Below are positions 2,608 to 50,514 of a stretch of DNA of 64,000 nt, in pieces. The notes under the pieces are model-generated. The model did not search any database. It was not told where the DNA came from and was given only the letters and a program-made list of their open reading frames with translations. The translations under genes were made by a program, and so were the position numbers. The first letter of the stretch is position 1, and the number at the start of each line of letters is the position of its first letter. Origin of the DNA: Bacillota bacterium (GTDB taxonomy: Bacteria > Bacillota > Clostridia > Christensenellales > Aristaeellaceae); assembly GCA_023404345.1 (NCBI GenBank), contig JAEYCB010000025.1:16221-80220 (forward strand), in the 5' to 3' direction.

Positions 2608-2805
2608 ATGGCAAAAGAAGTCCCCATTTGGCAGAAAAGCAATCTGACATTAGAGGAGGCTGCCGCCTATTCCGGCATTGGCATGGGCAAGCTGCGGGAG
2701 CTGACCAACGAGAAGAACTGCCATTTCGTTCTGTGGGTCGGCAACAAGCGGCTGATCAAGAAGCGGCTCTTCGACCAGTATATTGAGCAGACGTATTCGA
2801 TTTGA
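2608..2805 (+). CDS. Excisionase-type helix-turn-helix DNA-binding protein (Xis-like)
   Basis: 65 aa (MAKEVPIWQKSNLTLEEAAAYSGIGMGKLRELT...) with an HTH. AGGAGG SD 7 nt upstream of ATG 2608. Lies upstream of the integrase. The longer tracked ORF (from 2392) has no SD. Confidence 0.6.
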   Translation: MAKEVPIWQKSNLTLEEAAAYSGIGMGKLRELTNEKNCHFVLWVGNKRLIKKRLFDQYIEQTYSI

Positions 2806-6063: not shown

Positions 6064-7773
6064 ATGCATCTGTGGAAGAAAGCCTTTGGTATCCTGTGCG
6101 CATGCGTCCTGATGACGTCCTGCGCTAGCGCGTTTGCAGACGACTATACTGCCTCTGCCCCCGGCATGGGCGGCGACATTCCCGTGACCGTCAGCTATGA
6201 GGACGGCCGCATCACAGCTGTTACTGTGGGCGAAAACAAGGAAACCCCCGGCATCGGCGACAAGGCGGTGGAGACCATTCCCGCCCGCATCGTGGAGGAG
6301 CAAAGCCTGATGGTGGACACCGTGGCCGGCGCCACCATCACCAGCGAAGCCATCCTGGCGGCGGTGGAAGCTGCTCTCACCGACGGTGGCGTGGACGTAA
6401 CCCCCTTCAAGCAGGAAAAGGAAACCACTGAGCTTGCGGAGGGCGAGGCCGTAGAAACCGATATCGTCATCGTTGGCGCAGGCATTTCTGGCCTTATGGC
6501 GGCCTATGAGCTCAAGGAGGACTATCCGGACGTCAACTTCATTGTGCTGGAAAAGCTGGATATGGTCAGCGGTTCTCTGCCGGCTTCCGGTGGTGCCATT
6601 GCCGGCATCAGCTCGGAATACCATGTGCGCGACGGTGTGGAGTGCACCACGGAAGACTTTGACACGTTGTTCACCTACACCTCCGGCACCCAGGTCCGCA
6701 CCGAGCTGGTGGAAAATGTCTATGCCAAGAGCGATGTGCTCCTTAACCGCCTGATTGCCTATGGTACTCCCTTTACCGGAGAAACCGAGGCCACCAGCAC
6801 CTATTCGGACAAGGTATATGCCATTCGTACTGAAAATCGCGGCCAGAGTTTCGGCGATTTCCTCAACAGCTACGTAAAGGAAAATACCTTTGACCTGCGT
6901 ATGGGCACCACTGCCACCGAGCTGATCGTGGAAGACGGCAAGGTGACGGGCGTGGTGGCTGAAGATCGTGAGCAGCGCTACGACATCCATGCCAAAGCGG
7001 TCATTCTGGCCACCGGCGGTTTTGGCAGCAACCCTGAACTGATGGAAGAATATCTGCCCCTGTTCGCTGACGGCGTGCTTTCCACAAATGCGGGCGCCAC
7101 GGGCGATGGTATCCTGATGACCCGTCAGTTCGGCACCAAGATTGTGGGCGACGGCAGCATGGGTTCCATCGTCGCGCCGGACGGCTCCAACCTGATCACC
7201 GCTAACTTCCTGGTCAACCTCAACGGCGAACGCTTCGTGGGCGAAGGCGAACCCAAGTATGTGGTGCAGCGCGCTGTGTCTCAGCAGCCCGAGAAAGCCG
7301 CTTTCCTGATTGCAGACGCCAACTACGCCGACATGGACACCATTGCCCAGAAGATCGAAAAGGGCTATGTGAAGCAATACGATACCATCGAAGCGCTTGC
7401 TGAGGACAACGGCATTGACGCCGAGCAGCTTCAGAAGACCATTGATGCGTATAATCAGGCTGCCGACGCGGGCGAGGCAATTCCTGCCCTTGAGTACGAG
7501 CTGGCTGCCGATAAGGCCACCAAGGTGGAAACCGCACCTTTCTACATTGAAAAGGTCACCCTGCGTACCTTCGGCACCATTCCCGGTATTGAGGTCAACG
7601 ACAACTGCCAGGTGCTCGATGGTGAGGGCCAGGTGGTTGAAGGCCTGTATGCTTCCGGCGAACTGATCGCAGGCAATGCCTTTACCCGCCAGTACCCTGG
7701 TGTGGGCATTGGCGTGTCCTTTGCCGCCAACAGCGGCCGCTTTGCTGCTGAAACTGCGGCTAATGGCCTGTAA
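6064..7773 (+). CDS. Exported (possibly lipoprotein) FMN_bind-domain / FAD-dependent reductase of the fumarate- or urocanate-reductase flavoprotein type
   Basis: Signal peptide MHLWKKAFGILCACVLMTSCASAF. FMN_bind domain with flavinylation motif DTVAGATITS. FAD Rossmann motif DIVIVGAGISGLMAA, and the C-terminal GLYASGE block of FAD_binding_2 reductases. Confidence 0.8.
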   Translation: MHLWKKAFGILCACVLMTSCASAFADDYTASAPGMGGDIPVTVSYEDGRITAVTVGENKETPGIGDKAVETIPARIVEEQSLMVDTVAGATITSEAILAAVEAALTDGGVDVTPFKQEKETTELAEGEAVETDIVIVGAGISGLMAAYELKEDYPDVNFIVLEKLDMVSGSLPASGGAIAGISSEYHVRDGVECTTEDFDTLFTYTSGTQVRTELVENVYAKSDVLLNRLIAYGTPFTGETEATSTYSDKVYAIRTENRGQSFGDFLNSYVKENTFDLRMGTTATELIVEDGKVTGVVAEDREQRYDIHAKAVILATGGFGSNPELMEEYLPLFADGVLSTNAGATGDGILMTRQFGTKIVGDGSMGSIVAPDGSNLITANFLVNLNGERFVGEGEPKYVVQRAVSQQPEKAAFLIADANYADMDTIAQKIEKGYVKQYDTIEALAEDNGIDAEQLQKTIDAYNQAADAGEAIPALEYELAADKATKVETAPFYIEKVTLRTFGTIPGIEVNDNCQVLDGEGQVVEGLYASGELIAGNAFTRQYPGVGIGVSFAANSGRFAAETAANGL

Positions 7774-15425: not shown

Positions 15426-15446
15426 GGTTTCCTCCCCTGCGGACGC

Positions 15447-15540
15447 AAAAAAGCTGATGGCTTCTGCGATCCGTTCATCGTCAGAAGTCATCAGCTTGAA
15501 AAAGCGGTTTGGGTCACCCCTGGGAGAACTTCATTCCCTG
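15447..15540 (-). promoter_or_regulatory. Fluoride riboswitch (crcB RNA motif) with terminator expression platform
   Basis: Minus strand reads CA-GGGAAUGAAGUUCUCCC-AGGGGUGACCC-AAAC-C-GCUU-UUUC-AAGC-UGAUGACUUCUG. By eye this matches the fluoride consensus (GGnGAUGgnGUUCnCC..AAAC.GC..GCUgAUGAyuCCU). Loop GAAGU can pair with the downstream ACUUC (pseudoknot). That ACUUC is also part of the 5' arm of the terminator AGCUGAUGaCUUCUG-N15-CAGAAGcCAUCAGCU + UUUUUU. The extra 11-nt hairpin after P1 is atypical. Confidence 0.7.
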
Positions 15541-15545
15541 CGGTC

Positions 15546-15575
15546 ATCATAGCAGATGGTTGCGGGAACTGTCAA
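15546..15575 (-). promoter_or_regulatory. Promoter TTGACA-18-TATGAT for the riboswitch-antiporter transcript
   Basis: On the minus strand, TTGACA is at 15575-15570 and TATGAT at 15551-15546. This puts the predicted TSS at the first riboswitch nucleotides. Confidence 0.6.
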
Positions 15576-23415: not shown

Positions 23416-24954
23416 TCAGGCCTTTTGGCGTTTTTCGCCACTGCGCACAAAAAGCGGGCGGTCCAGCGCCATGGCGGCCAAAAGCACATACAATGGCGCA
23501 AAAATAAACAGGTAGCGTGGCCACACCTCAAACAGCAGCAGATAGGCAGTAGCCCCGATCAATGCAAGGGTCAGCACCTGTACAGCGGGATAGCGGCGGC
23601 ATACAAAGGAAGCAATCGCACATAGTGCAAGCACCGCCAGCCACAAGCCCTGTGCCAGCGTATGGCATAGAGGATTGAGACTCCCCCGATGGTGATAGAG
23701 GCTACGGACAAAGGTACTCAGTGCGTCTGTACGTCGTGGTATTTCCAGGTCCAGAAAACTGGAATTGGCGGCGAAACTGCCGTCGGCATACGCTTTATAC
23801 ATTTTAATTGTGAAGAAGCGCACGTTGCCCCATAGCCCCTTCTCACACAGACGCTCCCATGCCCTGTGCAGGTTGGCCTGCTGGCGGTCGGCCAGGGATT
23901 CGAACGACTGGGAAAAAGTTACGTCATCAGGCGAATGTCCGCCATAGGTTTCGCCATTCATGCCCAGCATCAGGTAGTGTGTCTCGCTCAGCTGCTCCTC
24001 AGGTGTAACGCTGCCCGCCAGATAGGCCGTGGATGCGCGCTGAAACGCCTGCCCCGGCAAAGCTCCCAGCACAAGGGCAGCAATCACCGCCAGCACGCCT
24101 TTCCATGCAGAAGCGGAAAAATCCCGGCGTCCCAAAAAGCGGCACAGTGCCAGCAAGCCCATTGCAATAAGCACGATCAGCACCGTTGGCTTAATGGCTG
24201 CGCCGGCAAAGCACGCCAGCGAAACAAGCCCCCATTTGAGCGCCGGGCGCCGTACCGTCAGCCATGCATACAGTGCCAGCACAGGAAACAGCACCGCCCA
24301 TGTATCGGTATATGGATAAAGCACATACGGGGACAGAGCAATCCACAGAATGGATACCGCCGCAGCGAAGCCCCTTGCCCACCGGCTTTGGGTCATACAT
24401 TGGGCGCAGCGCACCGTAAAATAGGCCGTCAGATTGAGCAGGACCGCATCCAGATACGGCAGGACCACAAATGGCACTGCCAGCCCCAGCTTCACTGCCA
24501 CCCACATGGGCACAGCCTGCAAAACTGTCAGCGGCGCATTGTTGGGGCACAGGCGGAAGTAATCAGCAGCGGTCAACGCCTGCCCTCGCGCTAGCTCCTC
24601 AGCCGTGCCATAGACATTGGCAATATCCCAGCCCATCTTGTACCAGGCACAGCGCACCACCACCAGCTGCACCGCCAGCACAGCAACCATTAGCGCTCGA
24701 ATGCGCCACAAAGCCCCTTTGTTATCGGAGCGTGTATCCGCCGTCTCCAGCCGGGCACGGCCCCACAAGAGCAGTGCTACGACTGCCAGCGCCGCAGGAC
24801 ACAGGGCCAGGTTGCTTGCAAGGCTCAGGTTTTGATAGTACTGGGACAGCGCGGGCTGGCCCAGTATCAGCAACCCCAGCACAAAAATAAACATCACGCC
24901 CGCCACAGCGCTCCACACGGCTGGCAGGGAAAAGCGATTGTGTTCAGACCGCAT
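23416..24954 (-). CDS. Polytopic membrane protein, GT-C (ArnT/PMT_2)-like glycosyltransferase candidate
   Basis: 513 aa from ATG 24954, with many TM helices and a soluble C-terminal part. The tracked ORF start (25176) runs into the RNase P RNA gene and is rejected. Confidence 0.5.
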   Translation of the reverse strand: MRSEHNRFSLPAVWSAVAGVMFIFVLGLLILGQPALSQYYQNLSLASNLALCPAALAVVALLLWGRARLETADTRSDNKGALWRIRALMVAVLAVQLVVVRCAWYKMGWDIANVYGTAEELARGQALTAADYFRLCPNNAPLTVLQAVPMWVAVKLGLAVPFVVLPYLDAVLLNLTAYFTVRCAQCMTQSRWARGFAAAVSILWIALSPYVLYPYTDTWAVLFPVLALYAWLTVRRPALKWGLVSLACFAGAAIKPTVLIVLIAMGLLALCRFLGRRDFSASAWKGVLAVIAALVLGALPGQAFQRASTAYLAGSVTPEEQLSETHYLMLGMNGETYGGHSPDDVTFSQSFESLADRQQANLHRAWERLCEKGLWGNVRFFTIKMYKAYADGSFAANSSFLDLEIPRRTDALSTFVRSLYHHRGSLNPLCHTLAQGLWLAVLALCAIASFVCRRYPAVQVLTLALIGATAYLLLFEVWPRYLFIFAPLYVLLAAMALDRPLFVRSGEKRQKA

Positions 24955-25017
24955 GCAACGGCACGCCCCTTCCTGATTTGGCGATACGACAAAAAGCGGG
25001 CATCCATCCCGCCTGTA

Positions 25018-25371
25018 AAGGTGCTGCCGGCGCGGTCGTAAGCCGAGTTCTGTCGTTGGACGATCATCTATCTCCACCGTGCGTTGCCGCACGGCTGAAG
25101 CGATCTCTTTGAGAGCACGACGGGCCGCCGTATTGCTCCCGGTCGGATCTTGCATCGGGTGGGGTTTACAGCGCAAACCTGTTACCAGGCCGCGGGTGAG
25201 CTCTTACCTCGCCTTTCCATCCTTGCTCCGCACATGATGCGCGGGGCGGTCTATCTCTGTTGCACTTTCCTTGAAGTTGCCTTCACCGGCCGTTAGCCGG
25301 CACCCTGCCCTATGATGCTCGGACTTTCCTCATGGCATGCCACGCGATCGCCTGGCCGCCCGGACAGCTTT
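25018..25371 (-). ncRNA. rnpB: RNase P RNA (bacterial type A-like)
   Basis: The minus strand carries the conserved blocks GAGGAAAGUCCGAGC (+ strand 25317-25331) and ACAGAACUCGGCUUAC (+ strand 25038-25053). 5' AAGCUGUCCGGGCGG and 3' CCGCGCCGGCAGC can form P1. Length is about 350 nt and the ends are approximate. Confidence 0.85.
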
Positions 25372-25413: not shown

Positions 25414-25929
25414 CTACTCGTTAATGGCCTCGATGCCTAAGCGTGCAGCCTGACGCATACGCTCTCTGATTTTCTCCAGCACCTGCGGTGCCAGCGGTTC
25501 CCAATCACAGTTCTCACAGACGATACGCAGCGGCTGGCGCGACCTATAGGAGCGGGTTGGGTTGCCCGGAAACTTCTGATCTGTCACGTTGGGGGCGTCC
25601 TCGATGGGTCCCAGCGGCTCGACCACATACACCCGCGCGGGCCCCTCCCCCGCCGCCAGCTCCGCAGCCAGCGCCGCGCCCTCCTTGCGGGCCGTCAGAT
25701 AGACGAAATTCGCCGTTTGCCGGCTGCCATAGTTGGAGGTGTGCCCCGGTGTGAGCAAATCGCCGGGCCGCAGGTCCGCCCGCGTACCATGGTAGAGTGG
25801 CCCCGCCTCCCGCACATCCGTGCGCAGGCCCACGGGCGTGAAGGGCCTGGGCGGCTCCCCGCTCATCTCTCCGCTGGTGGTCAGGCTGTTCCAGGCCCGG
25901 GTAAAGTCCGTATCGTCATGTTTCATCAC
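25414..25929 (-). CDS. arr: Rifampin ADP-ribosyltransferase (Arr family)
   Basis: Blocks LYHGTRADLRPGDLL, TSNYGS, FVYLTA, AELAAGEG, VYVVEPLGPIEDAPNVTD and KFPGNPTRSYRSR match Arr-ms/Arr-2-type enzymes as I remember them. There is an N-terminal extension of about 30 aa. Start is GTG 25929 or ATG 25926. Confidence 0.8.
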   Translation of the reverse strand: MMKHDDTDFTRAWNSLTTSGEMSGEPPRPFTPVGLRTDVREAGPLYHGTRADLRPGDLLTPGHTSNYGSRQTANFVYLTARKEGAALAAELAAGEGPARVYVVEPLGPIEDAPNVTDQKFPGNPTRSYRSRQPLRIVCENCDWEPLAPQVLEKIRERMRQAARLGIEAINE

Positions 25930-26217
25930 AAGACCGCCTCCCGTTTCATGCCGTCATTCGCGGGTTAGTATATCGCCATGCCCGCAAAAATACCAGTCTT
26001 TGTTTTTCCCCCTGGTTTATGCTATACTGATGGTATGGAGATTCTCCGATACGCGCCGAACATCCATATACAGGCCAAATCCGTGGGCGCCGGCAAATGA
26101 TTCTTTCGCCGGATGCCTCCCCCTCCCTTGCGCACCGCGCCGTTTTGTGGCAAAATAGGCCGTGTTGTGCCGGGACCCTGCGCCCGGCATCCTGAAAACG
26201 GGGGAGGGAACGCAACG

Positions 26218-27762
26218 ATGGAAGCTCCTCAATGCGTTTTGATTCTGGATTTTGGCGGACAATATACCCAGCTGATCGCCCGGCGCGTGCGCGAGCACGG
26301 GGTCTATTCCTGCGTGCTCCCCTGCGGCGCGCCGCTGGCGGATATCCGGGCGCTGCAGCCCAGGGGCATCATTTTCAGCGGAGGCCCGGCCAGCGTGTTG
26401 GATGAGAGCGCTCCTACGGTGGATGAGGGCGTGTTTGCGCTGGGCGTGCCGGTTTTGGGCATCTGTTACGGCATGCAGCTGATGGCGCATCTCCTGGGCG
26501 CGCCGGTGGAACGCGGCGCGCGGCGCGAATACGGCCGCACCGATGTGACCATGGACCGGGTGGACGGCGGGCTGCTGGCGGGGCTCCAGCCGCGCAGCGC
26601 CTGCTGGATGAGCCATACCTATCAGGTGGCGCGTCCCCCGGAGGGCTTTGCGGCCATCGCGCACACCGCGGACTGCCCCGTGGCCGCCATGGCCGACGAG
26701 ACGCGCCGGCTCTACGGCGTGCAGTTTCATCCTGAAGTAACGCACACCGAGGAAGGCGCGCGCGTGCTGGAAAACTTTCTGCTGGATATCTGCGGCTGCG
26801 CGGGCGACTGGAGCATGGAGGCCTACGCGGACATGACCATCAGGCAGATCCGCGAGCAGGTGGACGGCGGCACGGTGCTGCTGGGCCTGTCCGGCGGCGT
26901 GGACAGCGCGGTGGCGGCGGCGCTGCTCTATCGCGCCATCGGCAGCCGGCTGACCTGCGTGTATGTGGACCATGGCTTCATGCGCGCGGGAGAAAGCGAC
27001 TATGTGGTGGATGTGTTCACCCGCGTGTTTCCGGTGGAGCTGGTGCATGTGGACGCCTCGGAACGCTTCTTCCGCGATTTGAAGGGCGTGACCGAGCCGG
27101 AGGCGAAGCGCAAGATCATCGGCCGCGACTTTGTGGAGGTCTTCCGCGAAGAGGCGCGCAAGCTGGGCAGGCGCGACCATTTCGCCCAGGGCACCATCTA
27201 CCCCGACGTGATCGAAAGCGGCCACGCACAGGGCAGCGCGGTGATCAAGAGCCACCACAATGTAGGCGGCCTGCCCGCCGAGCTGGGCTTTGACAGCCTG
27301 GTGGAGCCGCTGCGCATGCTCTTTAAGGACGAGGTGCGCCGCCTCGGCCTGACGCTCGGCCTGCCGGAGTCCCTGGTCTACCGCCAGCCTTTCCCTGGCC
27401 CCGGCCTGGCCATCCGCGTGGTGGGTGAGCTCACACCTGACAAGGTGCGCATCGTGCGTGAAAGCGATCTGATTTTGCGCGAGGAAATGGCCGCTGCCGG
27501 ACTGGATAAGCAGGTGTCACAGTATTTTACGGTGCTAACCGGCGCACATTCTGTAGGTGTGATGGGCGATGAGCGCACCTATGCCTACGCCGTGGCCCTG
27601 CGTGCCGTGACTACCGACGATTTCATGACCGCCGATGTAGCCCGCCTGCCTTATGATCTTCTGGGACGTGTGGCCACTCGCATTGTTGGTGAGGTAGCAG
27701 GATGCAACCGTGTTTTGTACGATGTCACGACGAAGCCGCCGGCGAGTATCGAGTGGGAGTAA
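26218..27762 (+). CDS. guaA: GMP synthase (glutamine-hydrolysing)
   Basis: GATase N-terminus VLILDFGGQYTQLIARRVRE, PP-loop SGGVDSAV, C-terminal KPPASIEWE. GGGGGAGGGAA SD before ATG 26218. Confidence 0.95.
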   Translation: MEAPQCVLILDFGGQYTQLIARRVREHGVYSCVLPCGAPLADIRALQPRGIIFSGGPASVLDESAPTVDEGVFALGVPVLGICYGMQLMAHLLGAPVERGARREYGRTDVTMDRVDGGLLAGLQPRSACWMSHTYQVARPPEGFAAIAHTADCPVAAMADETRRLYGVQFHPEVTHTEEGARVLENFLLDICGCAGDWSMEAYADMTIRQIREQVDGGTVLLGLSGGVDSAVAAALLYRAIGSRLTCVYVDHGFMRAGESDYVVDVFTRVFPVELVHVDASERFFRDLKGVTEPEAKRKIIGRDFVEVFREEARKLGRRDHFAQGTIYPDVIESGHAQGSAVIKSHHNVGGLPAELGFDSLVEPLRMLFKDEVRRLGLTLGLPESLVYRQPFPGPGLAIRVVGELTPDKVRIVRESDLILREEMAAAGLDKQVSQYFTVLTGAHSVGVMGDERTYAYAVALRAVTTDDFMTADVARLPYDLLGRVATRIVGEVAGCNRVLYDVTTKPPASIEWE

Positions 27763-27960
27763 GCGAAGAAATTCACAACGAAAAAAGATTGGGCAAGGCT
27801 ATTCTTTCAACCTTGCTCAAATAGAATATAAAGCAAAAATACATGTCCTACTATTCATTCGACTCTACTCCACTCAACGCACCCTACAGCCGGTTATAAT
27901 TTATTGTTTTGCTGTTCAGCGGGAAGAATATCGAAAAATGATAAGTATACCGGAAAAATA

Positions 27961-28011
27961 AAAAACCACCGCCCGATTCCAACAAAACAAAGGAATCGGG
28001 CGGTGGTTTTT
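27961..28011. terminator. Strong bidirectional terminator
   Basis: AAAAACCACCGCCCGATTCC-N11-GGAATCGGGCGGTGGTTTTT, with A/T runs on both sides. Confidence 0.85.
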
Positions 28012-28118
28012 GGAAGTGATTTTATAAATCAATCCGAAAGCAGCATGTTAGAGCCGTCCAGTTTTCGTCCCCATCCATCATACCTATTTTCGTGCTATAT
28101 TCCCACTTCCCTAAAGAG

Positions 28119-28646
28119 TCAATACAGGAACATTCCAAAATAAGTGACCGTATTTTGTCCATTTATATACTTGATGTCTGCACAGTTGGCCAGCTTCGCC
28201 ACATGAATTCCAAAGCCCTCCAAAGACGGAAACAACCGTTTTACCTGCCTGCATGGAGCGGAAGGATAGGTGCAGATTTTACACCGTTTGCATCCCTCAT
28301 TGGATAGAAGTAGGAACTCGTGCAGCCAAGGTTTTACCAGTTCATATAATCGGTCACACACATCTTTGAAAGCGCTGTGTCCCTGCATCATTCCTTCATA
28401 GTCAAAGGAATCCTCCAGAGAGTATACAGCATTGAATACCATGGCTGTTTTATACTGAAGGCATCGTGCGCGGCATTCCTTGACAGTTCCCACAGCTGGA
28501 GGGCAGGCCCATGTCGTCCCATACAAACGGCAAACGTTATTTTCGCAAATCTTGCGGATTTCCGGCTCAAAAGGAATCTCGACCGTTGGAATTATCCCAT
28601 ATTCATGGATACCGATTTCTTTCAAATCGCTTTTTTTCAGTATCAT
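28119..28646 (-). CDS. DUF2284-type Cys-rich metal-binding protein
   Basis: NNVCRLYGTTWACPP and CKRCKICTYPSAPC blocks. 175 aa. Confidence 0.65.
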   Translation of the reverse strand: MILKKSDLKEIGIHEYGIIPTVEIPFEPEIRKICENNVCRLYGTTWACPPAVGTVKECRARCLQYKTAMVFNAVYSLEDSFDYEGMMQGHSAFKDVCDRLYELVKPWLHEFLLLSNEGCKRCKICTYPSAPCRQVKRLFPSLEGFGIHVAKLANCADIKYINGQNTVTYFGMFLY

Positions 28647-28682
28647 TCTATTACCTGTTTTCCCAGCCGGACGTTTGCAGCA

Positions 28683-29444
28683 TCAAAGGAACAGCTCACT
28701 TTCTTTCCGCTCAGAGCAAACCTTCTTCAGCATCAGGCTGGCCGCAGAGAGCATGACAGGATTAAGTTTGCGAGCCCCCTGCGGACATACAGCGATACAA
28801 CGCATACAGGAGATGCACGCCTTCTCGTCCACCTTCTTCGGATCTTCCTTGTTGATGGCCTGTACGGGACACTCTGCTGCACAGACGCCACAGTTGGTGC
28901 ACTCTTTTGTTGCTTTGGGCACCATGCCGGCTCCTCCGGCTTTCTTGTAAGGGCGATTACCGGGAATCGCAGGATCTGAAGCGTCTGCCGCAGAGAGTTT
29001 ATGCTGAATCTGTTTGGCAAAATCGGAAAGCTGTGCCGCATCCTGTGCATCAGGCCGACCGGCGGCAAACTGCCGGGCGATGGAATGTTCCGCAATGGCG
29101 GCAACTGCCGCAATCACCTGAAACCCAGCCTGCTTTGCAGCGTCCTCCAGTTCTACCACCGTATCCTCATAGGCACGGTTGCCATAGACACAAACCAGAA
29201 CGGCTCGGGCGCCGTTGCCATGCGCCATGCCCAGCCGCTCTACCGCTACAGCAGGAACACGGCCACCGTAGGACGGCACGGAAATGACTGCTACATCCTC
29301 TTTTGCCAGTGAAATGGCATCAAAGTCCTGCTTGCTGTCGGTTAAGTCAACGGTGATTACGTCTCCCTCCAGTACGCCTGTCAAACAGTCAGCTACCTTT
29401 TTCGTTCCACCTGTTGGGCTGAACACGATGTCATAAAGTTTCAT
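28683..29444 (-). CDS. Flavodoxin-like domain fused to a 2x[4Fe-4S] ferredoxin domain
   Basis: N-terminal MKLYDIVFSPTGGTKKVA (flavodoxin-like). C-terminal CTNCGVCAAECP and CISCMRCIAVCP motifs. Confidence 0.75.
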   Translation of the reverse strand: MKLYDIVFSPTGGTKKVADCLTGVLEGDVITVDLTDSKQDFDAISLAKEDVAVISVPSYGGRVPAVAVERLGMAHGNGARAVLVCVYGNRAYEDTVVELEDAAKQAGFQVIAAVAAIAEHSIARQFAAGRPDAQDAAQLSDFAKQIQHKLSAADASDPAIPGNRPYKKAGGAGMVPKATKECTNCGVCAAECPVQAINKEDPKKVDEKACISCMRCIAVCPQGARKLNPVMLSAASLMLKKVCSERKESELFL

Positions 29445-29499
29445 CAGTATATCCTCCTTTTACTCGCCAATACGCCAGGAATTCATGTAATGTATGTTC

Positions 29500-30215
29500 T
29501 CAGAAAGTTTTGCATCTTCCTGGGACATCTTTTTCAAAAGTTTCGGCCAGCTCCAAAGCTGTCTGATGGAAATGAGACAGGGCAATACCGAAATCCACCT
29601 GTTTAATGATTTTCTCCGCTTTAGAAAGTCCGGGTTTATAATCCACATAAAAGTAATAAGCTGTTTCCGTTTTACGCACCCGCCAAAGCTGTGCATTTGG
29701 GGCCGAGGGCGCCAGCCGCACCATTTCCAGCGGCTGGGCATAGGCTCCGGCCATGTCTTTTGGACAACGGGGTACGAGAATCCGCCTGATAAAACAGTTT
29801 CTTCCATTCCTTTCGAGAGGAAGATTTCATGGTGGAGCGCATCATTGTTTCGGTCAGACTGCGTTTGGCGGCGGGATATCCCACCGGAGAAATCGCCAGA
29901 AACAGTGAATCTTCATGACAGAAGCAAAGCTGTCCCGATTGAATGTCGCCGCCAACCATACCGTACCCAGTCCCATATGAGTGGCCGCCAGGATCAGATT
30001 TTCGAATTCATATCTGGCCGCCAATGGCGCCTGCTCCGTATCCGGGATAGGAACCCCGAGGAAGGTACTCGCCCCCCTTGATGACGCCGCAGGTTCCCAG
30101 CTTTTCATCATCTGCATTCAGCATCGACTGGAAAGATAAAATTGCTTCGTCCAATGAAATTCGTTGTTTTGGATGCACGTCTCATAAGCAATGCACCTAC
30201 CGTGTGGTCTAGTGT
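29500..30215 (-). pseudogene. TM1586-type putative nitroreductase, disrupted by at least four frameshifts
   Basis: Family blocks are spread over three frames of the minus strand: MRRASKTTNF.. / DDEKLGTCGVIKGGEYL / YEFENLILAATHMGLGTVWLAATFNRDSFASVM / ISPVGYPAAKRSLTETMMRS / AQPLEMVRLAPSAPNAQLWRV..VDFGIALSHFHQTALELAE. The 5' limit is approximate. Confidence 0.6.
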
Positions 30216-30542
30216 GTAAATCAAAACCACGTTGAAAAATGCAAGCAATGTTCCAGTTTCCCATGTGGCAAAATAAAGGATATGCTCTTGTATTCCGCTG
30301 AACACGAGAAATAGAATTTTATCAACATGTCCTGTTTTATCACAGAACCTTTACCAGCAAAGCATATGTAGGCCCCTGATTTGAAATCAGAGCATATTGG
30401 GGAGCACCTTTTGGCATTGCTACATAAACTGACGTACAGGCTTTTTTGATCACCAATTTCCCTGATTATACCGGGGCCTTCTTTAACTATGGCACAACGC
30501 CATTTCTTTCAGCAATTTGTATTATCAGCCGCATACTTTCTG

Positions 30543-31130
30543 CTATTCCTTCACAGCCTGATTCTGCGCCGTTGGGCAAAACAGCACCATCAGATTTTCT
30601 CTTGCCTGGGTCAGCAGATCAAATTGCCCTCTTGCTACGCACCAATTGATAATCACGCTATTGGTTAACAAAATAGCAGCCATTGCCAGTCGTTCAGGTT
30701 CTGCCCGGTTGGAGATCAACCCCTCCGCTTGGGCGTAACCAATTAACTCTTGCGCTGTACGGCGCTCCTGAGCGTAAAGCACCTTCAAATCTTCAGATTC
30801 GCTTTCCATGCTTAACCGGCGCTTATAGTATTGCGCTGTAAGCATCCAACCACTTCGTTCAGCCCGCTGAGCGCACATGGTACATGTCACCAGAACGCGC
30901 TCCATCAAATCGTGTGTGGCAGCAAGGGCAAAGAGCTCCTTATTTCTCGGGCGCATATCATGCATCCGAAGACAGTCCATCAGCTCCTCCTTGGTTTTAA
31001 AGTGATAATAGAAGGTGCTGTTCGCCACTTCGGCATTCTGGCAAATGTCTTTAATCGTCACGTTTTCAAAACTTTTTTCTGAAAATAGAGACAAAGCGCT
31101 TTGAATAATGCGGTCACGATTTTTACTCAT
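30543..31130 (-). CDS. TetR/AcrR-family transcriptional regulator
   Basis: N-terminal HTH IIQSALSLFSEKSFENVTIKDICQNAEVANSTFYYHFKTKEEL. The ATG overlaps the apbE stop (ATGA). Confidence 0.85.
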   Translation of the reverse strand: MSKNRDRIIQSALSLFSEKSFENVTIKDICQNAEVANSTFYYHFKTKEELMDCLRMHDMRPRNKELFALAATHDLMERVLVTCTMCAQRAERSGWMLTAQYYKRRLSMESESEDLKVLYAQERRTAQELIGYAQAEGLISNRAEPERLAMAAILLTNSVIINWCVARGQFDLLTQARENLMVLFCPTAQNQAVKE

Positions 31131-32368
31131 GGTACGCCTCCATCCTCTTTGTCTTTAAAAAGGGAACCGGTATAGATTGCTTCTCCCTGCTCCCCCATAG
31201 CAGATGCCTGTAGGTAAGCGTTGTCCTCCAAGCGAAGTGCGGAATCCGGAAGGTTGGAAAACACCTCTAAATTGGGATATCCCGTCTCAAAAAAAACCAT
31301 TACTGCAGATTGATCGTTAAAGGATTCATTTACATATTTCATTGCCGCTGTGGGTCCCATCACGCAAAGTGCGGTGCTCAGAGCATCATTGTAAGCTGCA
31401 CTCGGCCCCAAAAGCGTTACGCTGGCGATCCCCCTCTGTGGCTCGCTTTCATTGGGCATGTTGATGGGATATCCCGTACGCGGATCAATAATGTGGCAAT
31501 AGATAATGCCATCCAGCGTATAGGTATGGTTGGCGTCGGAGCTGGTGGACACTGTGGTATCTTGTGCAAACACAGTCGCAAAATGGCTTTCGCCGCTATG
31601 ACCGGTACGCGGCTTAGCCAGTGTAAGGCCATAGTCACCTTCCGGCCTTGCCAAGAGAGAAATAGAACTGCCGCCACATACGAAGTGACCTTGTGTAAAA
31701 CCCATCTGTGCCAGCTGGCTGATCACCATGTCACAAGCGAATCCTTTGGCAATACCGCCCAAATCCAATTGAGCCTGAAATGTGTTGCCATCGACTGTAA
31801 CAGGCGGTGTGTTTTTTTGCAGTCTCCAGCCAGTCATCTCATCCCCCAAAAGTGTTATGCTTTCCATCCCGACCAGTTTTTGTAACCCCTGAATATAACG
31901 CACGTCAGGCAGCGGAAGCTTTCCATTCACATAGGCACGGTCGTAAGGCTGCGAGGGTTTGTATGCGTTTTGGTTGAAACGTGGAGAAAAGCCCCAAAGG
32001 TCCACCAATGGATAAACCGTCGGATCATATAACCCGCCAGTCTTTTCAAATGCCGTACGCGCAATCTGAAATAGCTGTGCGGTAATATTGCTCACAGAAC
32101 AGCTCTCGCCATATGCTAACCGGTTGAAACGGGACACATCCGATTCGGCTTCCGACAGCGATACAGCCTTCTGTACCTGCTCCAGCGTTTGCTTTACCAT
32201 CTGCCATGCCCGATCAAAGGCTGATGCATCCTCCGTATAGAGAAACAGCGCACTGACAGTGGAAAAATACTCATCCGTATGCTTGCTCTTCACCGTCTCT
32301 CCCAGTGCAGGCCGAAGCGCGAGCAGCATGAGAACCGTCCACACGATACACCACGCACGCTTTTTCAT
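31127..32368 (-). CDS. apbE: Exported FAD:protein FMN transferase (ApbE family)
   Basis: Signal peptide MKKRAWCIVWTVLMLLALRPALG/ET. ApbE block DLGGIAKGFACD. 413 aa. Confidence 0.85.
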   Translation of the reverse strand: MKKRAWCIVWTVLMLLALRPALGETVKSKHTDEYFSTVSALFLYTEDASAFDRAWQMVKQTLEQVQKAVSLSEAESDVSRFNRLAYGESCSVSNITAQLFQIARTAFEKTGGLYDPTVYPLVDLWGFSPRFNQNAYKPSQPYDRAYVNGKLPLPDVRYIQGLQKLVGMESITLLGDEMTGWRLQKNTPPVTVDGNTFQAQLDLGGIAKGFACDMVISQLAQMGFTQGHFVCGGSSISLLARPEGDYGLTLAKPRTGHSGESHFATVFAQDTTVSTSSDANHTYTLDGIIYCHIIDPRTGYPINMPNESEPQRGIASVTLLGPSAAYNDALSTALCVMGPTAAMKYVNESFNDQSAVMVFFETGYPNLEVFSNLPDSALRLEDNAYLQASAMGEQGEAIYTGSLFKDKEDGGVP

Positions 32369-32409
32369 ACCTTTCCTCCCCTGCGCAGCAAAACGGCTTT
32401 ATGGTTTTT

Positions 32410-32439
32410 ATTATACATGAAAGCATAATACAAAAGCAA
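32410..32439 (-). promoter_or_regulatory. Promoter TTGCTT-18-TATAAT for apbE-tetR
   Basis: On the minus strand, TTGCTT is at 32439-32434 and TATAAT at 32415-32410. Confidence 0.5.
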
Positions 32440-32491
32440 GTTATATATAGCGAACTACAAATATTATTCATATAAATATTAAAAAAATGAA

Positions 32492-32520
32492 TTGACAACA
32501 GATTGGCAATACAGTATACT
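32492..32520 (+). promoter_or_regulatory. Promoter TTGACA-17-TATACT for the exported nitroreductase / tandem FMN_bind operon
   Basis: TTGACA at 32492-32497 and TATACT at 32515-32520. Confidence 0.65.
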
Positions 32521-32525
32521 GTATT
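32508..32525. promoter_or_regulatory. Perfect 18-bp palindrome AATACAGTATACTGTATT overlapping the -10 box (candidate TetR operator)
   Basis: The palindrome is read directly. Assigning it to the adjacent TetR regulator is an inference. Confidence 0.5.
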
Positions 32526-32571
32526 CCACAATCGTTAAAGATTGCACAAAGGGAAAGGAGAATTGGAAACC

Positions 32572-33360
32572 ATGAAAAAACGCCTTGTAACTATGATGTT
32601 GGTTGTCATGATAGCGCTGTTGCCGGTTCTGGCAGTCGCCGAGGAAGCCTCCTTTGACGCATCTGGCCTGATTGACTGGTTCAACGAGAGCAACACCTGG
32701 ATGACGGTAGCCAACGGTCACTGGTCTTCTGATCCGGCCGATCAGATCAGCGACGAAGAGCTGGCCAAAGTGTTCAGCATGGCCGTGAAGCAGCAGAACG
32801 CCGTGCACTGGACGCCGTGGTATTTCATTGTGGTCAAGGATGTGGAAGAGCAGCGCAAAATCATTGGCGATGCCTGGGGCGACCCCAACGACATGGCCAC
32901 CGAGGGCACTGTTACCATCCTTGTGCTGGCGGACCAGATTATGACCGCAGAAGAAGGCCATGCCAGCGAATATGATGGCTACTATATGCCCACGACTTTT
33001 GCCTACTATGACACCGGCCTCACCTGCGGCCTGATGGAAGTTGCTCTGGCCTCTCTGGGCTACCAGACGCATTACTTTGGCACCATCAACGGCGAATATG
33101 CGCCCAAGGACCTGGCTGATGGCAAATATCAGTCCATGAGCCGCTACCTCAAGGATGATTATCAGCGCGTATGGGGCTTCCCCAACGCTTATGAAGGCGA
33201 AATCAGCGAGACCAGCGTATACCCCGTCGAGGGCAACTGCGTGTTCGTGGCGGCCATCGTAGTGGGCAAACCCGCTGCCGACGAAACCATTGAAACCTGG
33301 GGCACCAATCATGCCCGTCCGGACAACTGGGTCATCTGGGACGGAGTGCCCAACGAATAA
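32572..33360 (+). CDS. Sec-exported nitroreductase-fold protein
   Basis: Signal peptide MKKRLVTMMLVVMIALLPVLAVA/EE. Nitroreductase-like core (AVKQQNAVHWTPWYFIVVKDVEEQRKI ... VFVAAIVVGKP). GGAAAGGAG SD. Confidence 0.6.
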   Translation: MKKRLVTMMLVVMIALLPVLAVAEEASFDASGLIDWFNESNTWMTVANGHWSSDPADQISDEELAKVFSMAVKQQNAVHWTPWYFIVVKDVEEQRKIIGDAWGDPNDMATEGTVTILVLADQIMTAEEGHASEYDGYYMPTTFAYYDTGLTCGLMEVALASLGYQTHYFGTINGEYAPKDLADGKYQSMSRYLKDDYQRVWGFPNAYEGEISETSVYPVEGNCVFVAAIVVGKPAADETIETWGTNHARPDNWVIWDGVPNE

Positions 33361-33428
33361 GCCATCATGGCTTTGGGGGCTTCCTTTTCCGGAAGCTCCT
33401 ATTTCATTGTAAATTAAGGAGAAAAAAG

Positions 33429-34094
33429 ATGAAAAAGATCTTATCCCTGATTCTGTGCGGATTGCTGCTGACCATGGGAACCGCTCTGGCGGAGCTCGCC
33501 TTTGAACCAAATGTATATACCGGTGTTGGCGAGGGCATGGGAGGCGATGTGACCGTTGAAGTCACCTTCAGCGAAAACGCCATTGAGGAAGTCAAGGTTG
33601 TTTCCCATACGGAAACCCCCGGTATCAGCGACCCGGCCATCGAGCAGATTCCCTCCGCCATCGTAGAGGCGCAATCGCTGGATGTTGACGCCGTAGCAGG
33701 CGCAACGATAACCAGTAAGGCCATTGTCCAGGCCGTCGAGGATTGCGCCGTCCAGGCCGGCGCAGATCTTTCCCTGTTGAAAAGCGAAGTTGAGCTTCCG
33801 GAAAACACCTATGAAGGCGTGGGCAAGGGAATTGGCGGCGAAGTAAAGGTTTGGCTTGAGGTTGTAGACGGAAAAATGGTTTCTCTCACTGTTACAGAAC
33901 AGTCCGAAACCGAATTTGTCGCCGGCCCCGCGCTGGAGAAGATTCCCGCCGCCATTCTGGAGGCCCAGTCCTTTGACGTTGACGCAGTCACGGGCGCGAC
34001 GGTAACCAGCCGCGCGATCATTGACGCCGCAAAGGACGCAGCCGCAAAGGCCGGTTTGGATGTCGAGGCCATGAGTCCCGAGGAAGAAGAATAA
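33429..34094 (+). CDS. Exported protein with two FMN_bind domains (PplA-like flavinylation substrate)
   Basis: Signal peptide MKKILSLILCGLLLTMGTALA/E. Two repeats each end in a flavinylation-type motif: DVDAVAGATITSKAI and DVDAVTGATVTSRAI. Confidence 0.8.
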   Translation: MKKILSLILCGLLLTMGTALAELAFEPNVYTGVGEGMGGDVTVEVTFSENAIEEVKVVSHTETPGISDPAIEQIPSAIVEAQSLDVDAVAGATITSKAIVQAVEDCAVQAGADLSLLKSEVELPENTYEGVGKGIGGEVKVWLEVVDGKMVSLTVTEQSETEFVAGPALEKIPAAILEAQSFDVDAVTGATVTSRAIIDAAKDAAAKAGLDVEAMSPEEEE

Positions 34095-34112
34095 CCGTTC
34101 CCTAACGTTAAG

Positions 34113-34146
34113 GGCGCATCTGCCGCACGGGCAGATGCGCCTTTAC
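34113..34146 (+). terminator. Rho-independent terminator
   Basis: GCGCATCTGCC-GCAC-GGGCAGATGCGC followed by CTTTAC. Confidence 0.7.
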
Positions 34147-34489
34147 TATATCAAAAAAGCTCCCCCTCAACGGCTTTTGCTAACCGGGTACTTTTCTCCG
34201 CCGCCTTACTTTTCCCTCCATTCACACCATTGGGAACCAACAGGCTGTTTCAGGATTGCTTCTTTTTCCTAGGTGGTCATTTTGATGAACCAGGAGGCTG
34301 TTTCTCTGGCGAATGCGTACCCTCTCCCATTCATATAGCTCTGCTCCTACGCTTTTTATTCATTATTGGACAGACAGCTTTTCCCGTGCTTTTATGCCTG
34401 TGTTTTCCAAGCAGGCGGAGAGCATCGAAGTTTTCCTGTCTTCGACCGCTGATCAGTGTCATTTCTTCTTTCTGCTTTTTTCCCGGAAC

Positions 34490-34501
34490 GAAAGCGCTTT
34501 C
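34490..34501. promoter_or_regulatory. LacI/CcpA-type operator-like palindrome GAAAGCGCTTTC
   Basis: A perfect 12-bp palindrome 12 nt upstream of the -35 box. It matches the core of the TGAAAGCGCTTTCA-type operators of LacI-family regulators. Confidence 0.45.
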
Positions 34502-48704: not shown

Positions 48705-49598
48705 GTGCAAAAATCAAATAAACCGCAGACAGATTATACCGCAATGACGAACGGATTTCAACTGGTCATACCACTGGACTGCGAAGTAAATATTGCAAAG
48801 AATTCACCGGTGAGATTGCTCAATGCCGTCATGGAAAGGATGGATTACAGAAAACTGTATGCGGCATACTCCCGACTTGGGAGAATCGAGTACTCGCCGA
48901 AGATTCTACTGAAAATCATGGTGTACGGATATATGCGCAAGCAGATATCCAGCCGTGCGCTTGAAGCATGCTGTCGGGAGAATATACACTTTATGTATCT
49001 GCTTGAGGGACAGCCGGCGCCGGATCACAATACAATCAACCGTTTCTGCAAGAACCTCCTGACCCAGGAGGCAGGGCAAGATATTCTGCGGCAGCTTGTA
49101 TTGCTGCTGCACGAAAGTAATCTGCTCAGTTTTGAAGCCGCCTTCATAGATGGAACAAAGATCGAAGCAAACGCAAACAAGTACAGCTTCGTCTGGAAGA
49201 AAGCAACTGTGAAAAAGACAGACAAGCTGCTGAAGAAAATCCACGAAGAACTTCCGGCAAAGCTTAAGAATGTAAGCATTCGCTTTCATGTTCCGGAGAA
49301 GATTGCTGTCCGGCAATTAAAGAAACTCCGTAAACGGAGTCATGAGCGAATCAAAACAGAAGAAATTGAGTTTGTTTCAGGAAAGGGAAAGAGAAAAACA
49401 CCTCTGCAAAGACTGAGTGAGCAAGTGGATCGGTGGATTGCCCAACTCAAGCAATATACAAATGATATCCATATCTGTGGAAACCGAAACAGTTACAGTA
49501 AAACAGACCATGATGCAACCTTCATGCACATGAAAGAATGCTCTTATTGCCGCTGTTACAACAGGAGTCGGTTACGAAAAGTTAAAGGCGAGATATAG
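48705..49598 (+). mobile_element. IS1182-family transposase, 3'-truncated fragment
   Basis: Blocks NSPVRLLNAVMERMDY, YSPKILLKIMVYGYM, DGTKIEANANKYSFVWKK and SKTDHDATFMHMKE match IS1182-type transposases as I remember them. Similarity ends near 49545, and the DDE catalytic part is missing. Confidence 0.7.
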
Positions 49599-50228
49599 TA
49601 TTTACAATCATCAAGAATCAGAATAACGGGGGCGTCAAGCGAATTCAGAAAAGAATACACATTGGAGCAGATGCGTGAAATTATTAAAAACGTGCGAATG
49701 GTTAAAAATATGACAGACAGAAGGTTTTTGCTCTTATTATCATTGCATCCGCTGAGGTTGGAAGAAGTTTTGGGGCTTAAATGGAGCGATATTGACCGGG
49801 AAAACATGATTTTGCATGTAAGGCGAGCAGTAACTCATCCAACCAGAAATTTGCCGGAAATCAAAACACCAAAAACCGTATCAAGCATCAGAAGTATGAG
49901 CCTGTCAAGAAAAGCGGAAAAAGAACTTGGCGATGGAAATCCAGATGATTTTATAATAGGTGGCCCATCACCATACTCTTATACAAAAGTGAAAAGAATG
50001 TGCGAGAGAATACAAAAAGATATCGGTTTCGAAGAAAAAATAACCCCGAGTCGTTTTAGAACAACAGTATTGACCGATATTTATGATGTAACAAAAGATA
50101 TTAAACAGACACAACTTGCGGCAGGTCACACTACCGCAGCCATGACGCTAAAACACTATATAAAGGGGCGTAAAGAAAATACGAAAACATCGGATATTAT
50201 AGACAGTGTATACGGACAATGCAGCTGA
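49599..50228 (+). pseudogene. Tyrosine integrase, catalytic-domain fragment (N-terminal domains missing)
   Basis: LSLHPLRLEEVLGLKWSDID (box I Arg), TPSRFRTTVLTD, AGHTTAAMTLKHYIK (His..Tyr). The frame opens only at 49599, directly after the truncated transposase. Confidence 0.7.
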
Positions 50229-50391
50229 CATATCCTAAATGCTGAAACCATTGTTCTGTATGCGTTTCAGGACTATATTCTTAAAATAAACTGACACAAT
50301 TGCTGACAAAAAGCAGAATTATTCTAACGAGGTCATGCGTCTTGCAAGTTACAAATTATAATCCTGCAAAATCATGTATAAAATGTCCACA

Positions 50392-50434
50392 AAACCAATA
50401 AAAACTCCCCTGTAGAAGATTCCACAGAGGAGTT
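50392..50434 (-). terminator. Rho-independent terminator of tRNA-Thr
   Basis: Minus strand: AACTCCTCTGT-N10-ACAGGGGAGTT followed by TTTATTGGTTTTG. Confidence 0.7.
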
Positions 50435-50438
50435 AATC

Positions 50439-50514
<76 letters not shown>

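Follow-up and report, generated by a model that had tools for sequence, protein, structure and literature searches.

An ApbE-linked nitroreductase-fold protein with an export-type N-terminus suggests a type of extracellular flavin reductase not yet described in Clostridia

The genome of a gut bacterium of the Clostridia (Bacillota bacterium, Aristaeellaceae; GCA_023404345.1, contig JAEYCB010000025.1) holds a four-gene module that hints at a flavin reductase of an extracellular type not described before. We analysed the 64,000 nucleotides at positions 16,221 to 80,220 of this contig; this whole stretch is the window, and all coordinates given here are those of the window unless a related locus is named. 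The module consists of an apbE gene followed by a tetR gene and, divergent from them, the genes of a 262-amino-acid (aa) protein predicted to have the nitroreductase (NTR) fold and of a 221-aa protein with two FMN_bind domains. We lean towards reading it as a self-contained maturation-plus-reductase module, in which a flavin-matured extracytosolic reductase would work with an FMN_bind relay. A first-pass annotation of this DNA had proposed a flavin redox unit that works outside the cytosol, depends on ApbE and has a protein of the NTR fold as its unusual partner. The core of that proposal held with regard to export, fold and gene co-occurrence, and we found no published equivalent. The genes are as follows.

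30543..31130, minus strand: regulator of the TetR family, 195 aa, encoded at the end of the apbE-tetR operon (PF00440 TetR_N, 3.1e-13)
31127..32368, minus strand: ApbE-family FAD:protein FMN transferase (FAD, flavin adenine dinucleotide; FMN, flavin mononucleotide), 413 aa (PF02424, 1.5e-49, 169.3 bits vs a threshold of 25.6)
32572..33360, plus strand: exported NTR-fold protein, 262 aa, with a predicted signal peptide at about codons 1-23 (32572-32640)
33429..34094, plus strand: exported protein with two FMN_bind domains, 221 aa (PF04205, 2e-34, 118.5 bits, in two stretches)

Each of the four genes lay where the first-pass annotation had put it, as did the overlap of the apbE stop codon with the tetR start codon (ATGA, 31127-31130), a TTGACA-17-TATACT promoter, an 18-bp palindrome and both flavinylation motifs of the 221-aa protein. 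The motifs are DAVAGAT (Thr93, codon 33705-33707) and DAVTGAT (Thr191, codon 33999-34001). By the definition D-x-x-[S/T]-G-A-[S/T] (PMC12052999), DAVTGAT is canonical and DAVAGAT has an alanine in the fourth motif position. The closest PDB relative of the 221-aa protein is 8p2b, 'FMN4 domain 1' from a multi-flavinylated protein.

Fold, family and export of the 262-aa protein

The ApbE and FMN_bind profiles (PF02424 and PF04205) were clearly matched in the module. The nitroreductase profile PF00881 gave the 262-aa protein a score of 19.5 bits, under the Pfam gathering cut-off of 23.5, and no NCBIfam model matched it. Across the family, PF00881 reached E<=0.01 in 22 of 48 members, with a best value of 1.4e-7. 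The fold claim is therefore based on structure prediction and Foldseek, not on the Pfam threshold. The AlphaFold2 model of the 262-aa protein, built with 48 homologues, had a predicted local distance difference test (pLDDT) score of 90.7 and a predicted template modelling (pTM) score of 0.84. We compared this model with the PDB using Foldseek and obtained 183 matches at E<=1e-3. The best 50 of the 183 belonged to the NTR superfamily only, and NfsB, FRase I of Vibrio (1vfr), iodotyrosine deiodinase (IYD) and BluB were among them. These best 50 matches had a probability of 1.00, a sequence identity of 10-17% and target-normalised template modelling (TM) scores of up to 0.72. On the model, the NTR fold that had been proposed for 32572-33360 stands, in a family that is very divergent.

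The family is small: out of 1.84 billion representatives, its profile retrieved only 84 clusters, of which 68 had E<=1e-10, and it reached no canonical nitroreductase among these representatives. An alignment of 48 sequences contained 18 invariant and about 38 nearly invariant positions. These positions include residues that we take to be the counterparts of NfsB G166 and R207, on a manual mapping to NfsB. With the canonical nitroreductases (NfsA, NfsB and FRase I; PF00881), the protein shares the predicted alpha+beta fold, a QPW-like 'TPWYF' strand and a C-terminal Arg-Pro. Unlike them, it is exported and ApbE-linked, is at most distantly similar in sequence (the 10-17% identity and the sub-threshold Pfam score given above), carries no N-terminal R-x-S-x-K/R motif and has no cytosolic NAD(P)H (reduced nicotinamide adenine dinucleotide or its phosphate) at hand. 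Attempts at assigning the protein to a nitroreductase subgroup were set aside: phmmer and profile searches against the PDB gave weak, partial N-terminal alignments only, and hhalign against NfsB aligned 46 columns at 23% probability. Given that the domain falls under the Pfam threshold and that databases call the fused family members 'FMN-binding protein', the family has been overlooked in genome surveys.

Export was called from the N-terminal layout with a hydropathy heuristic, which looked for a start rich in Lys or Arg, followed by at least 12 residues of hydrophobic core and, last, an end of the AxA type. ApbE, the 262-aa protein and the 221-aa protein all had this layout. The N-terminus of ApbE is MKKRAWCIVWTVLMLLALRPALG/ET and that of the 221-aa protein is MKKILSLILCGLLLTMGTALA/EL; in the latter, the lipobox pattern [LVI][ASTVI][GAS]C was not found. 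Export-type N-termini were present in 87 of the 87 classifiable homologues of the 262-aa protein (Kyte-Doolittle mean of 2.1-3.9 over 12 residues), and five of these 87 had lipoboxes. More distant relatives carried twin-arginine signals. The ApbEs linked to the family had signal-like N-termini too, except for two open reading frames (ORFs) whose start is unreliably placed. The cleaved signal peptides that had been proposed for the hydrophobic N-termini agree with a layout that is kept throughout the family of the 262-aa protein. Cargo of the twin-arginine translocation (Tat) pathway is usually folded and already loaded with its cofactor. Sec cargo is delivered unfolded, so its flavin must be acquired outside the cell.

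Coupling to ApbE and a proposed electron route

We scanned 185,579 species genomes and found 31 loci of the family, all in Clostridia metagenome-assembled genomes (MAGs) from gut, rumen or digesters. The lineages were Ruminococcaceae/Oscillospiraceae, Christensenellales, Limnochordia and Peptococcaceae. The nearest relative, L004, encodes an NTR-like protein that is 95% identical to that of the window and comes from an uncultured Ruminococcaceae MAG. The co-occurrence of these genes is conserved. First, of the 27 loci whose flanks were long enough to be informative, 23 have apbE beside the NTR-like gene. In addition, 45 of 91 classified homologues are fused to a C-terminal FMN_bind domain. A short low-complexity C-terminal tail is found in another 17, and 16 of the 17 tails hold one or two ApbE-type motifs, as in P0014 (...DAATGATPAAADAATGAT..., in which DAATGAT occurs twice). 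Finally, 29 of the 91 are bare NTR-like proteins, fragments among them; the bare members at L019 and L022 have no FMN_bind partner in reach and still have an adjoining apbE. The split arrangement of the window, with an NTR-like protein and a separate FMN_bind protein, was also seen in L004, L023 and L034. When the neighbours within 7 kb were clustered for 34 loci, the recurrent ones were ApbE, TetR (5 loci including the window) and a 506-aa FAD_binding_2 family (5 loci), and no membrane protein recurred. The NTR-like family is very tightly coupled in evolution to ApbE and to flavinylation sites, and such sites accompany it in almost all genomes that we examined.

The members of about 290 aa with an Ala/Thr-rich tail were P0014, P0017, P0018, P0021-P0026, P0030, P0031, P0034-P0036 and P0076. 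Their tail motifs (DAATGAT twice, or DATAAAT...DATS[SA]AT) resemble the C-terminal-tail flavinylation of FMN_red proteins. Non-canonical motifs also occurred in some of the fused FMN_bind domains, namely DDVSAAT, DAITGVT (P0007/L005, P0012/L007) and DTVASAT (P0016). The same drift from G to A or S and from A to V was seen in tail and internal motifs, which hints that the linked ApbEs tolerate or prefer such variants. Exported, little-annotated proteins adjoin the NTR-like gene in L002/L013 (8777-9421), L032 (10761-11813) and L033 (2853-3917). A 350-aa form of this neighbour has two DAVSGAT/DAVTGAT motifs and one weak FMN_bind match; a 214-aa form looks like the C-terminal half of the 350-aa form, with VITGTS instead. 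Both may be a further type of flavinylated partner.

In the model of an NTR-like::FMN_bind fusion, both domains were confident, the linker (266-280) was disordered and the pTM was 0.67. The disordered linker fits a swinging relay arm. A fixed docking of FMN_bind on the NTR-like domain was considered and dropped, as the disordered linker and this pTM allow no defined interface to be claimed.

ApbE-dependent flavinylation is a general bacterial route for moving electrons outside the cytoplasm, and its catalytic ends have so far been mainly fumarate-reductase-like enzymes and metal or iron systems. For the module in the window, we infer as follows where the electrons come from and where they go, what the NTR-fold protein catalyses and on which acceptor, and how TetR acts as a repressor. 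ApbE, predicted to be exported, would use FAD to place FMN, through phosphoester bonds, on Thr93 and Thr191 of the protein with two FMN_bind domains. This protein would serve as a flexible electron relay, fed by a membrane donor encoded elsewhere in the genome, and would pass electrons to the exported NTR-fold protein, which is expected to form a homodimer and would be the catalytic terminal reductase. Because NAD(P)H is unavailable outside the cell, its use by an exported NTR-fold protein is implausible, and the relay flavin would substitute for the nicotinamide donor in the usual ping-pong cycle. The active-site flavin would then reduce a small soluble acceptor, for example a quinone, free flavin, a compound with a nitro or azo group, or some other electrophile from the diet or the host. 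TetR, co-transcribed with apbE, would hold both divergent promoters off until a ligand appears. If this is true, an NTR-fold terminal enzyme adds two-electron reduction of nitro compounds, azo compounds, quinones or flavins outside gut anaerobes, and such extracellular NTR chemistry would bear on drug and xenobiotic metabolism in the gut.

The following observations weigh against this proposal. The N-terminal FMN-phosphate motif of the NfsB type (R-x-S-x-K/R; R10/S12/K14) has no basic counterpart in the 262-aa protein. In an hhalign alignment with NfsB, D17 of NfsB fell on D54, and the preceding WMTVANGHWSS is without a basic residue. Given the missing basic motif, flavin binding may be altered. 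The relay and the NTR-like protein are both without a lipobox, which leaves their retention at the cell surface unexplained. A membrane electron donor was found neither in the window nor as a conserved gene of related neighbourhoods. In a Pfam sweep of about 45 ORFs across the window, no Ndh2, EetA/EetB, DmkA, Rnf, NapH-like or PepSY-like gene was detected, in agreement with the first-pass annotation, which had stated that Ndh2/EetA/EetB/DmkA-type input is lacking here. Furthermore, in L001 (9223-10743) and L009 (4442-5962) the next gene downstream of the NTR-like::FMN_bind gene encodes a 506-aa reductase of the FAD_binding_2 type, which carries a twin-arginine signal (SRRTFLKGAAAG). This reductase has no FMN_bind domain of its own, and the NTR-like::FMN_bind protein could be its donor instead of a second reductase beside it.

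We next compared the module with known systems. It is like the ApbE-flavinylated FAD_binding_2 reductases (fumarate- and urocanate-reductase-like; Meheust et al. 2021, PMC8238504) in that an exported catalytic flavoprotein and FMN_bind, fused or as neighbours, go together with an adjacent ApbE that is predicted to be extracytosolic; the lipoprotein at 6064-7773 of the window is one such reductase. It is unlike them in that the NTR fold replaces FAD_binding_2 and in that the cluster here holds no transmembrane electron-transfer partner. Nitroreductases appear nowhere in the main text of that survey, and the accessible part of its supplement has them as neighbours without a signal peptide only (PMC8238504). 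The module resembles the flavin-based extracellular electron transfer (EET) system of Listeria monocytogenes (PplA/FmnB) in that an ApbE homologue, here predicted to be extracytosolic, is paired with a surface protein built from two FMN_bind domains. Unlike in Listeria, the 221-aa protein is without a lipobox, Ndh2, EetA, EetB, DmkA/B and FmnA are missing among the scanned ORFs of the window, and there is an NTR-fold partner, which the Listeria system does not have. The label 'PplA-like' that had been given to the 221-aa protein is apt for the two-FMN_bind layout and misleading as to the lipobox and an EET locus. In the open literature, subscription-only papers being outside the search, we found no description of a natural exported or ApbE-linked NTR-fold protein. 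An engineered nitroreductase and incidental cytosolic neighbours were all that the literature gave, in line with the novelty claimed for this architecture.

Thr245 and the other explanations considered

The NTR-like protein may itself be an ApbE substrate that carries its active-site FMN on Thr245, a residue shortly before Arg249, with the adjacent ApbE serving chiefly this protein and the FMN_bind protein as an extra relay. This explanation would alter the way in which the cofactor is bound and leave the reductase role as it is; it overlaps with the proposal above, and we regard it as a tentative possibility. The candidate site is as follows.

33304..33306, plus strand: codon of Thr245, candidate FMN phosphoester site in the loop TIETWGTNHARP, a family-invariant hydroxyl residue

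We determined the Thr245 column from a MAFFT alignment and an HMM (hidden Markov model) alignment of 149 members, of which 144 were aligned at the column. It contained Thr in 122, Ser in 22 and no other residue. The clade of the window has TWGT at this loop in 55 members and TWGS in 18, a Thr/Ser swap that fits a requirement for a hydroxyl group. Distant relatives that the family profile retrieved have an ApbE motif within the NTR-like domain itself, where a loop follows the final core strand. Examples are GKVDESVDAVSGATKNDPIRMQNYDFWD (P0139), GKADLEVDAASGATSVERGTNYAIWS (P0146), DASTGAT (P0137), DAATGAT (L042) and DTASGAT (L043). The last residue of the sister-clade motifs (DAVSGAT, DAASGAT, DASTGAT, DAATGAT and DTASGAT) aligns to the Thr245 column. 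A canonical motif was present in 5 members and the relaxed form [DE]xx[STA][GSA][AV][ST] in 20, that is, in 15 beyond the canonical ones. The distant relatives L042, L043 and L045/P0137 have an FMN_bind domain besides the internal motif, a combination that suggests two flavins with separate roles in catalysis and relay. No ApbE was found on the 1.4-3.5 kb contigs of six distant relatives with canonical internal motifs, or at four longer metagenome loci of distant relatives (L041-L043, L045). The adjacency of ApbE is therefore a property shown for the window's own clade.

The bare members at L019 and L022, which keep their apbE in the reach of no FMN_bind partner, also speak for Thr245 as a substrate site, as does the export route, since an unfolded Sec-exported protein must gain its flavin outside the cell. 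Thr245 sits four residues before Arg249-Pro250, and we liken Arg249, by topology rather than by superposition, to R207 at the C-terminal FMN-phosphate site of NfsB (K205/R207). According to a review of ApbE, motif variants with G to A or A to V were still flavinylated to about 50%, and D to A had a minor effect (PMC12052999). Flavodoxin_4 and FMN_red proteins have been shown to be flavinylated at sites that once held flavin non-covalently; in FMN_red, this occurs on tails at the C-terminus in which the motif stands once or twice (Huang et al. 2024, PMC11334425). The NTR-like family is like these substrates in that a cytosolic-type, non-covalent flavoprotein family appears to have been recruited to extracytosolic flavinylation, and their motif sites (an internal insertion, or a C-terminal tail with one or two copies) are matched by the internal-motif sister clades and the tail variants of about 290 aa. 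It is unlike them in its NTR fold and in that the internal motif of the window protein is degenerate and a separate protein with two FMN_bind domains is used. An engineered 'flavin-fixed' nitroreductase of Bacillus tequilensis with FMN installed by ApbE stays active (Tong et al. 2023, PMC10722498; PDB 8Q5G), so the NTR fold is compatible with a threonyl-phosphate FMN. Its man-made site is at the N-terminal phosphate-binding residues R15/H16/A17, and the natural candidate site is in a C-terminal loop. Given the Flavodoxin_4/FMN_red and engineered precedents, covalent tethering is credible.

Natural covalently flavinylated nitroreductases are plausible on these alignments, and we found none described in the openly searchable literature. 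The family might be the first natural class of covalently flavinylated NTR-fold proteins, with the catalytic FMN on the invariant Thr/Ser, which would lie in a canonical motif in sister clades and, in the window's clade, in a diverged T-W-G-[T/S] loop read by a dedicated ApbE, and with a second tethered flavin in place of NAD(P)H, an idea that we put forward with reserve. The first-pass annotation had pointed out that NTR-fold enzymes normally bind FMN non-covalently. With the invariant Thr/Ser lying within the ApbE motifs of sister clades, this can no longer be taken for granted here, and covalent tethering is a live alternative.

The window protein provides the main counterargument. Its loop, TIETWGT, keeps the hydroxyl group, but the motif is degenerate, with Trp-Gly for Gly-Ala and without the Asp, and we know of no ApbE that accepts a site of the T-I-E-T-W-G-T type. 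The window's clade has gained FMN_bind partners and tail motifs, possibly to compensate for a lost internal site. Moreover, the proximity of Thr245 to the phosphate depends on topology and on the NfsB residues K205/R207. Since the loop is degenerate, covalent FMN is no more than a possibility for the window protein. If the covalent explanation is true, the gut Clostridia own a new type of extracytosolic terminal reductase for small electrophiles. A flavinylated invariant Thr would also provide a natural template for cofactor-locked nitroreductases, which would be useful to enzyme engineers. It has been stated that all known representatives of the proteins studied, nitroreductases included, carry dissociable FMN (PMC10722498), and for nitroreductases this would no longer hold.

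A second alternative concerns the acceptor, which could be free flavin or O2. In that case the module would either reduce flavins outside the cell to feed a shuttle or serve a strict anaerobe as an oxygen scavenger. This is compatible with the relay-fed reductase that we prefer, and we consider it rather doubtful. The best 50 of the 183 structural matches include BluB and an NTR-fold flavin reductase, Vibrio FRase I (1vfr), and by record titles the host lineage is gut Ruminococcaceae/Oscillospiraceae, in which flavin-mediated extracellular electron transfer is known. However, ligand sensing of the TetR type is better suited to a substrate that induces expression than to a shuttle that is always on, and the sequence favours flavin over other acceptors in no way.

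It is also conceivable, and in our view unlikely, that the NTR-like domain is the point of electron entry, oxidising a reduced flavin shuttle or quinol and feeding an exported FAD_binding_2 enzyme through FMN_bind. The Tat-exported FAD_binding_2 proteins without FMN_bind that directly follow the NTR-like::FMN_bind gene in L001 and L009 fit this scheme. So does L032, where the gene is joined by apbE and an FMN_bind-FAD_binding_2 reductase, and no other donor is encoded in any cluster examined. Against it, FAD_binding_2 neighbours were found in only about 5 of the 31 loci, and reduction of FMN by quinol oxidation runs thermodynamically uphill by established redox potentials. In addition, most loci hold nothing beyond apbE, an NTR-like gene and a site for flavinylation, and look like acceptor-side units that are complete in themselves.

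That the NTR-like protein is a non-catalytic relic that binds flavin or another ligand, whether as a flavin store or carrier for ApbE or as a structural partner of FMN_bind, seems improbable. The lost N-terminal phosphate-binding motif would agree with it, as would the 10-17% identity to canonical NTRs and a family profile that reaches none of them at library scale. Yet 18 invariant and about 38 nearly invariant positions are kept across 48 sequences, and such strong purifying selection on would-be pocket residues argues for chemistry. Finally, the notion of an ordinary cytoplasmic nitroreductase with a mis-called start is very unlikely and can practically be dismissed, because export-type N-termini are kept across homologues and linked ApbEs, with MKK-hydrophobic-AxA or its lipobox and twin-arginine variants in every classifiable full-length homologue, a good ribosome-binding site precedes the ATG at 32572, and both of its partners, ApbE and FMN_bind, are of types that work outside the cytosol.

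Transcription signals and surroundings of the module

The transcription signals of the module are as follows.

32410..32415, minus strand: candidate -10 box (TATAAT on the minus strand) of the apbE-tetR promoter, called from conservation only (the consensus scan did not report it)
32446..32459, no strand: imperfect palindrome TATAGCGAACTACA, candidate TetR operator, a conserved block in the alignment
32492..32520, plus strand: sigma-70-type promoter TTGACA-17-TATACT of the NTR-like and FMN_bind genes, 11/12 consensus matches
32508..32525, no strand: perfect 18-bp palindrome AATACAGTATACTGTATT, covering the -10 box
33374..33401, plus strand: hairpin between the NTR-like and FMN_bind genes, terminator-like, 11 pairs
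34109..34145, plus strand: operon-end hairpin, likely intrinsic terminator, a 16-bp stem followed by UUUACUAUAU

The promoter of the NTR-like gene is the best consensus site of the region, with TTGACA at 32492-32497, a 17-nt spacer and a TATACT that ends at 32520. The block is kept in L004 and in the four TetR-bearing loci besides the window (L005, L011, L025 and L028), in which the TetR homologues occupy the same position as in the window. For the apbE-tetR promoter, most of the related intergenic regions have an ATTATA about equally far from the start of apbE.

The first-pass annotation had proposed a switch made of TetR and the 18-bp palindrome. The palindrome is real and lies over the -10 box; it is unique in the window and occurred in 0 of 100 shuffles, even with 3 mismatches allowed. 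Its right half is not kept in L004 (...CAATGGCGTATACTGTAACA...) or L028 (...CGATATGGTACACTACTTC...), and an alignment with L004, L005, L011, L025 and L028 ruled it out as a conserved operator. Since the palindrome is absent from the closest relatives L004 and L028, its role as an operator is uncertain. On the same alignment, the element at 32446-32459 appears to be the better candidate for the TetR operator, because it is present in every TetR-bearing locus. The pattern TRTAGYNAACTAYM matches all the other TetR loci (L005, L011, L025 and L028) plus L004; elsewhere in the 34 loci it matches just once, in L009. As four of the matching loci served to derive the pattern, the match in L004 is the only independent confirmation. 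In L011 the TRTAGYNAACTAYM element is a perfect 6+6 palindrome, TGTAGTAAACTACA, and in L005 and L011 it sits at the expected -35 position of the apbE-tetR promoter. Beside distant relatives of the NTR-like protein, we found a TetR (L041), a MerR (L039) and an MFS transporter (L045). TetR, MerR and MFS proteins are the usual company of inducible xenobiotic or quinone reductases.

The stretch that holds the intercistronic hairpin (33355-33432) had a folding energy of -24.9 kcal/mol (z -3.1). A smaller hairpin precedes it, and both are present in L004 with slight sequence differences. A stable hairpin between the two plus-strand genes means that their expression may be unequal; it may act as a partial terminator and determine how much of one protein is made relative to the other, or as an element of mRNA stability. 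The fold of 34090-34160, which contains the operon-end hairpin, had -31.7 kcal/mol (z -6.3). Rfam detected no structured RNA or riboswitch inside the module.

One further gene of the window belongs to ApbE-type chemistry:

6064..7773, plus strand: lipoprotein with an N-terminal FMN_bind domain and FAD_binding_2 (fumarate-reductase-like), PF00890 6e-48 and PF04205 4e-17, lipobox LMTSC, motif DTVAGAT

This lipoprotein, 24 kb away, is an extracytosolic flavin reductase by its domains and likely a second client of the ApbE at 31127-32368. Together with the exported FAD_binding_2 reductases beside the NTR-like gene in L001, L009 and L032, it gives the module company of a respiratory type.

The GC content is 0.46-0.55 over about 27.5-34.5 kb vs 0.58-0.68 in the flanks. 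This low-GC stretch (about 27500-34500) spans ferredoxin/DUF2284 genes, a broken nitroreductase gene and the whole ApbE module, and may be a horizontally acquired island. The broken gene, at 29460-30180 on the minus strand, consists of three overlapping ORF fragments in different frames with similarity to TM1586-type nitroreductases (PF14512; 7.6e-9, 2.5e-4). It is apparently a frameshifted pseudogene of a cytosolic nitroreductase, or else a sequencing error. Beside it lie the genes of an EFR1-type flavodoxin/4Fe-4S ferredoxin (28683-29444) and of a DUF2284 protein (28119-28646).

Mobile-element remnants occur at 447-3596 (a DnaG-type zinc-ribbon protein, a VapE-like protein and a Tn916-type excisionase) and at 48705-50514 (a DUF772 transposase and a truncated phage-integrase ORF beside the tRNA gene at 50442-50514). 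A fluoride riboswitch (RF01734, 45 bits; 15475-15547, minus strand) lies directly upstream of a Na+/H+ exchanger-family gene (14193-15491). The class A RNA of bacterial RNase P (246 bits) was found at 25023-25363 on the minus strand; a 586-aa 'ORF' without a Pfam match (23416-25176) overlaps it in part and may be partly spurious. Between the RNase P RNA and an ORF at 26113-27762, whose translation has the look of the GMP synthase guaA, lies an antibiotic-resistance-type gene for a rifampin ADP-ribosyltransferase (Arr-ms, 5.7e-45; 25414-25929, minus strand).

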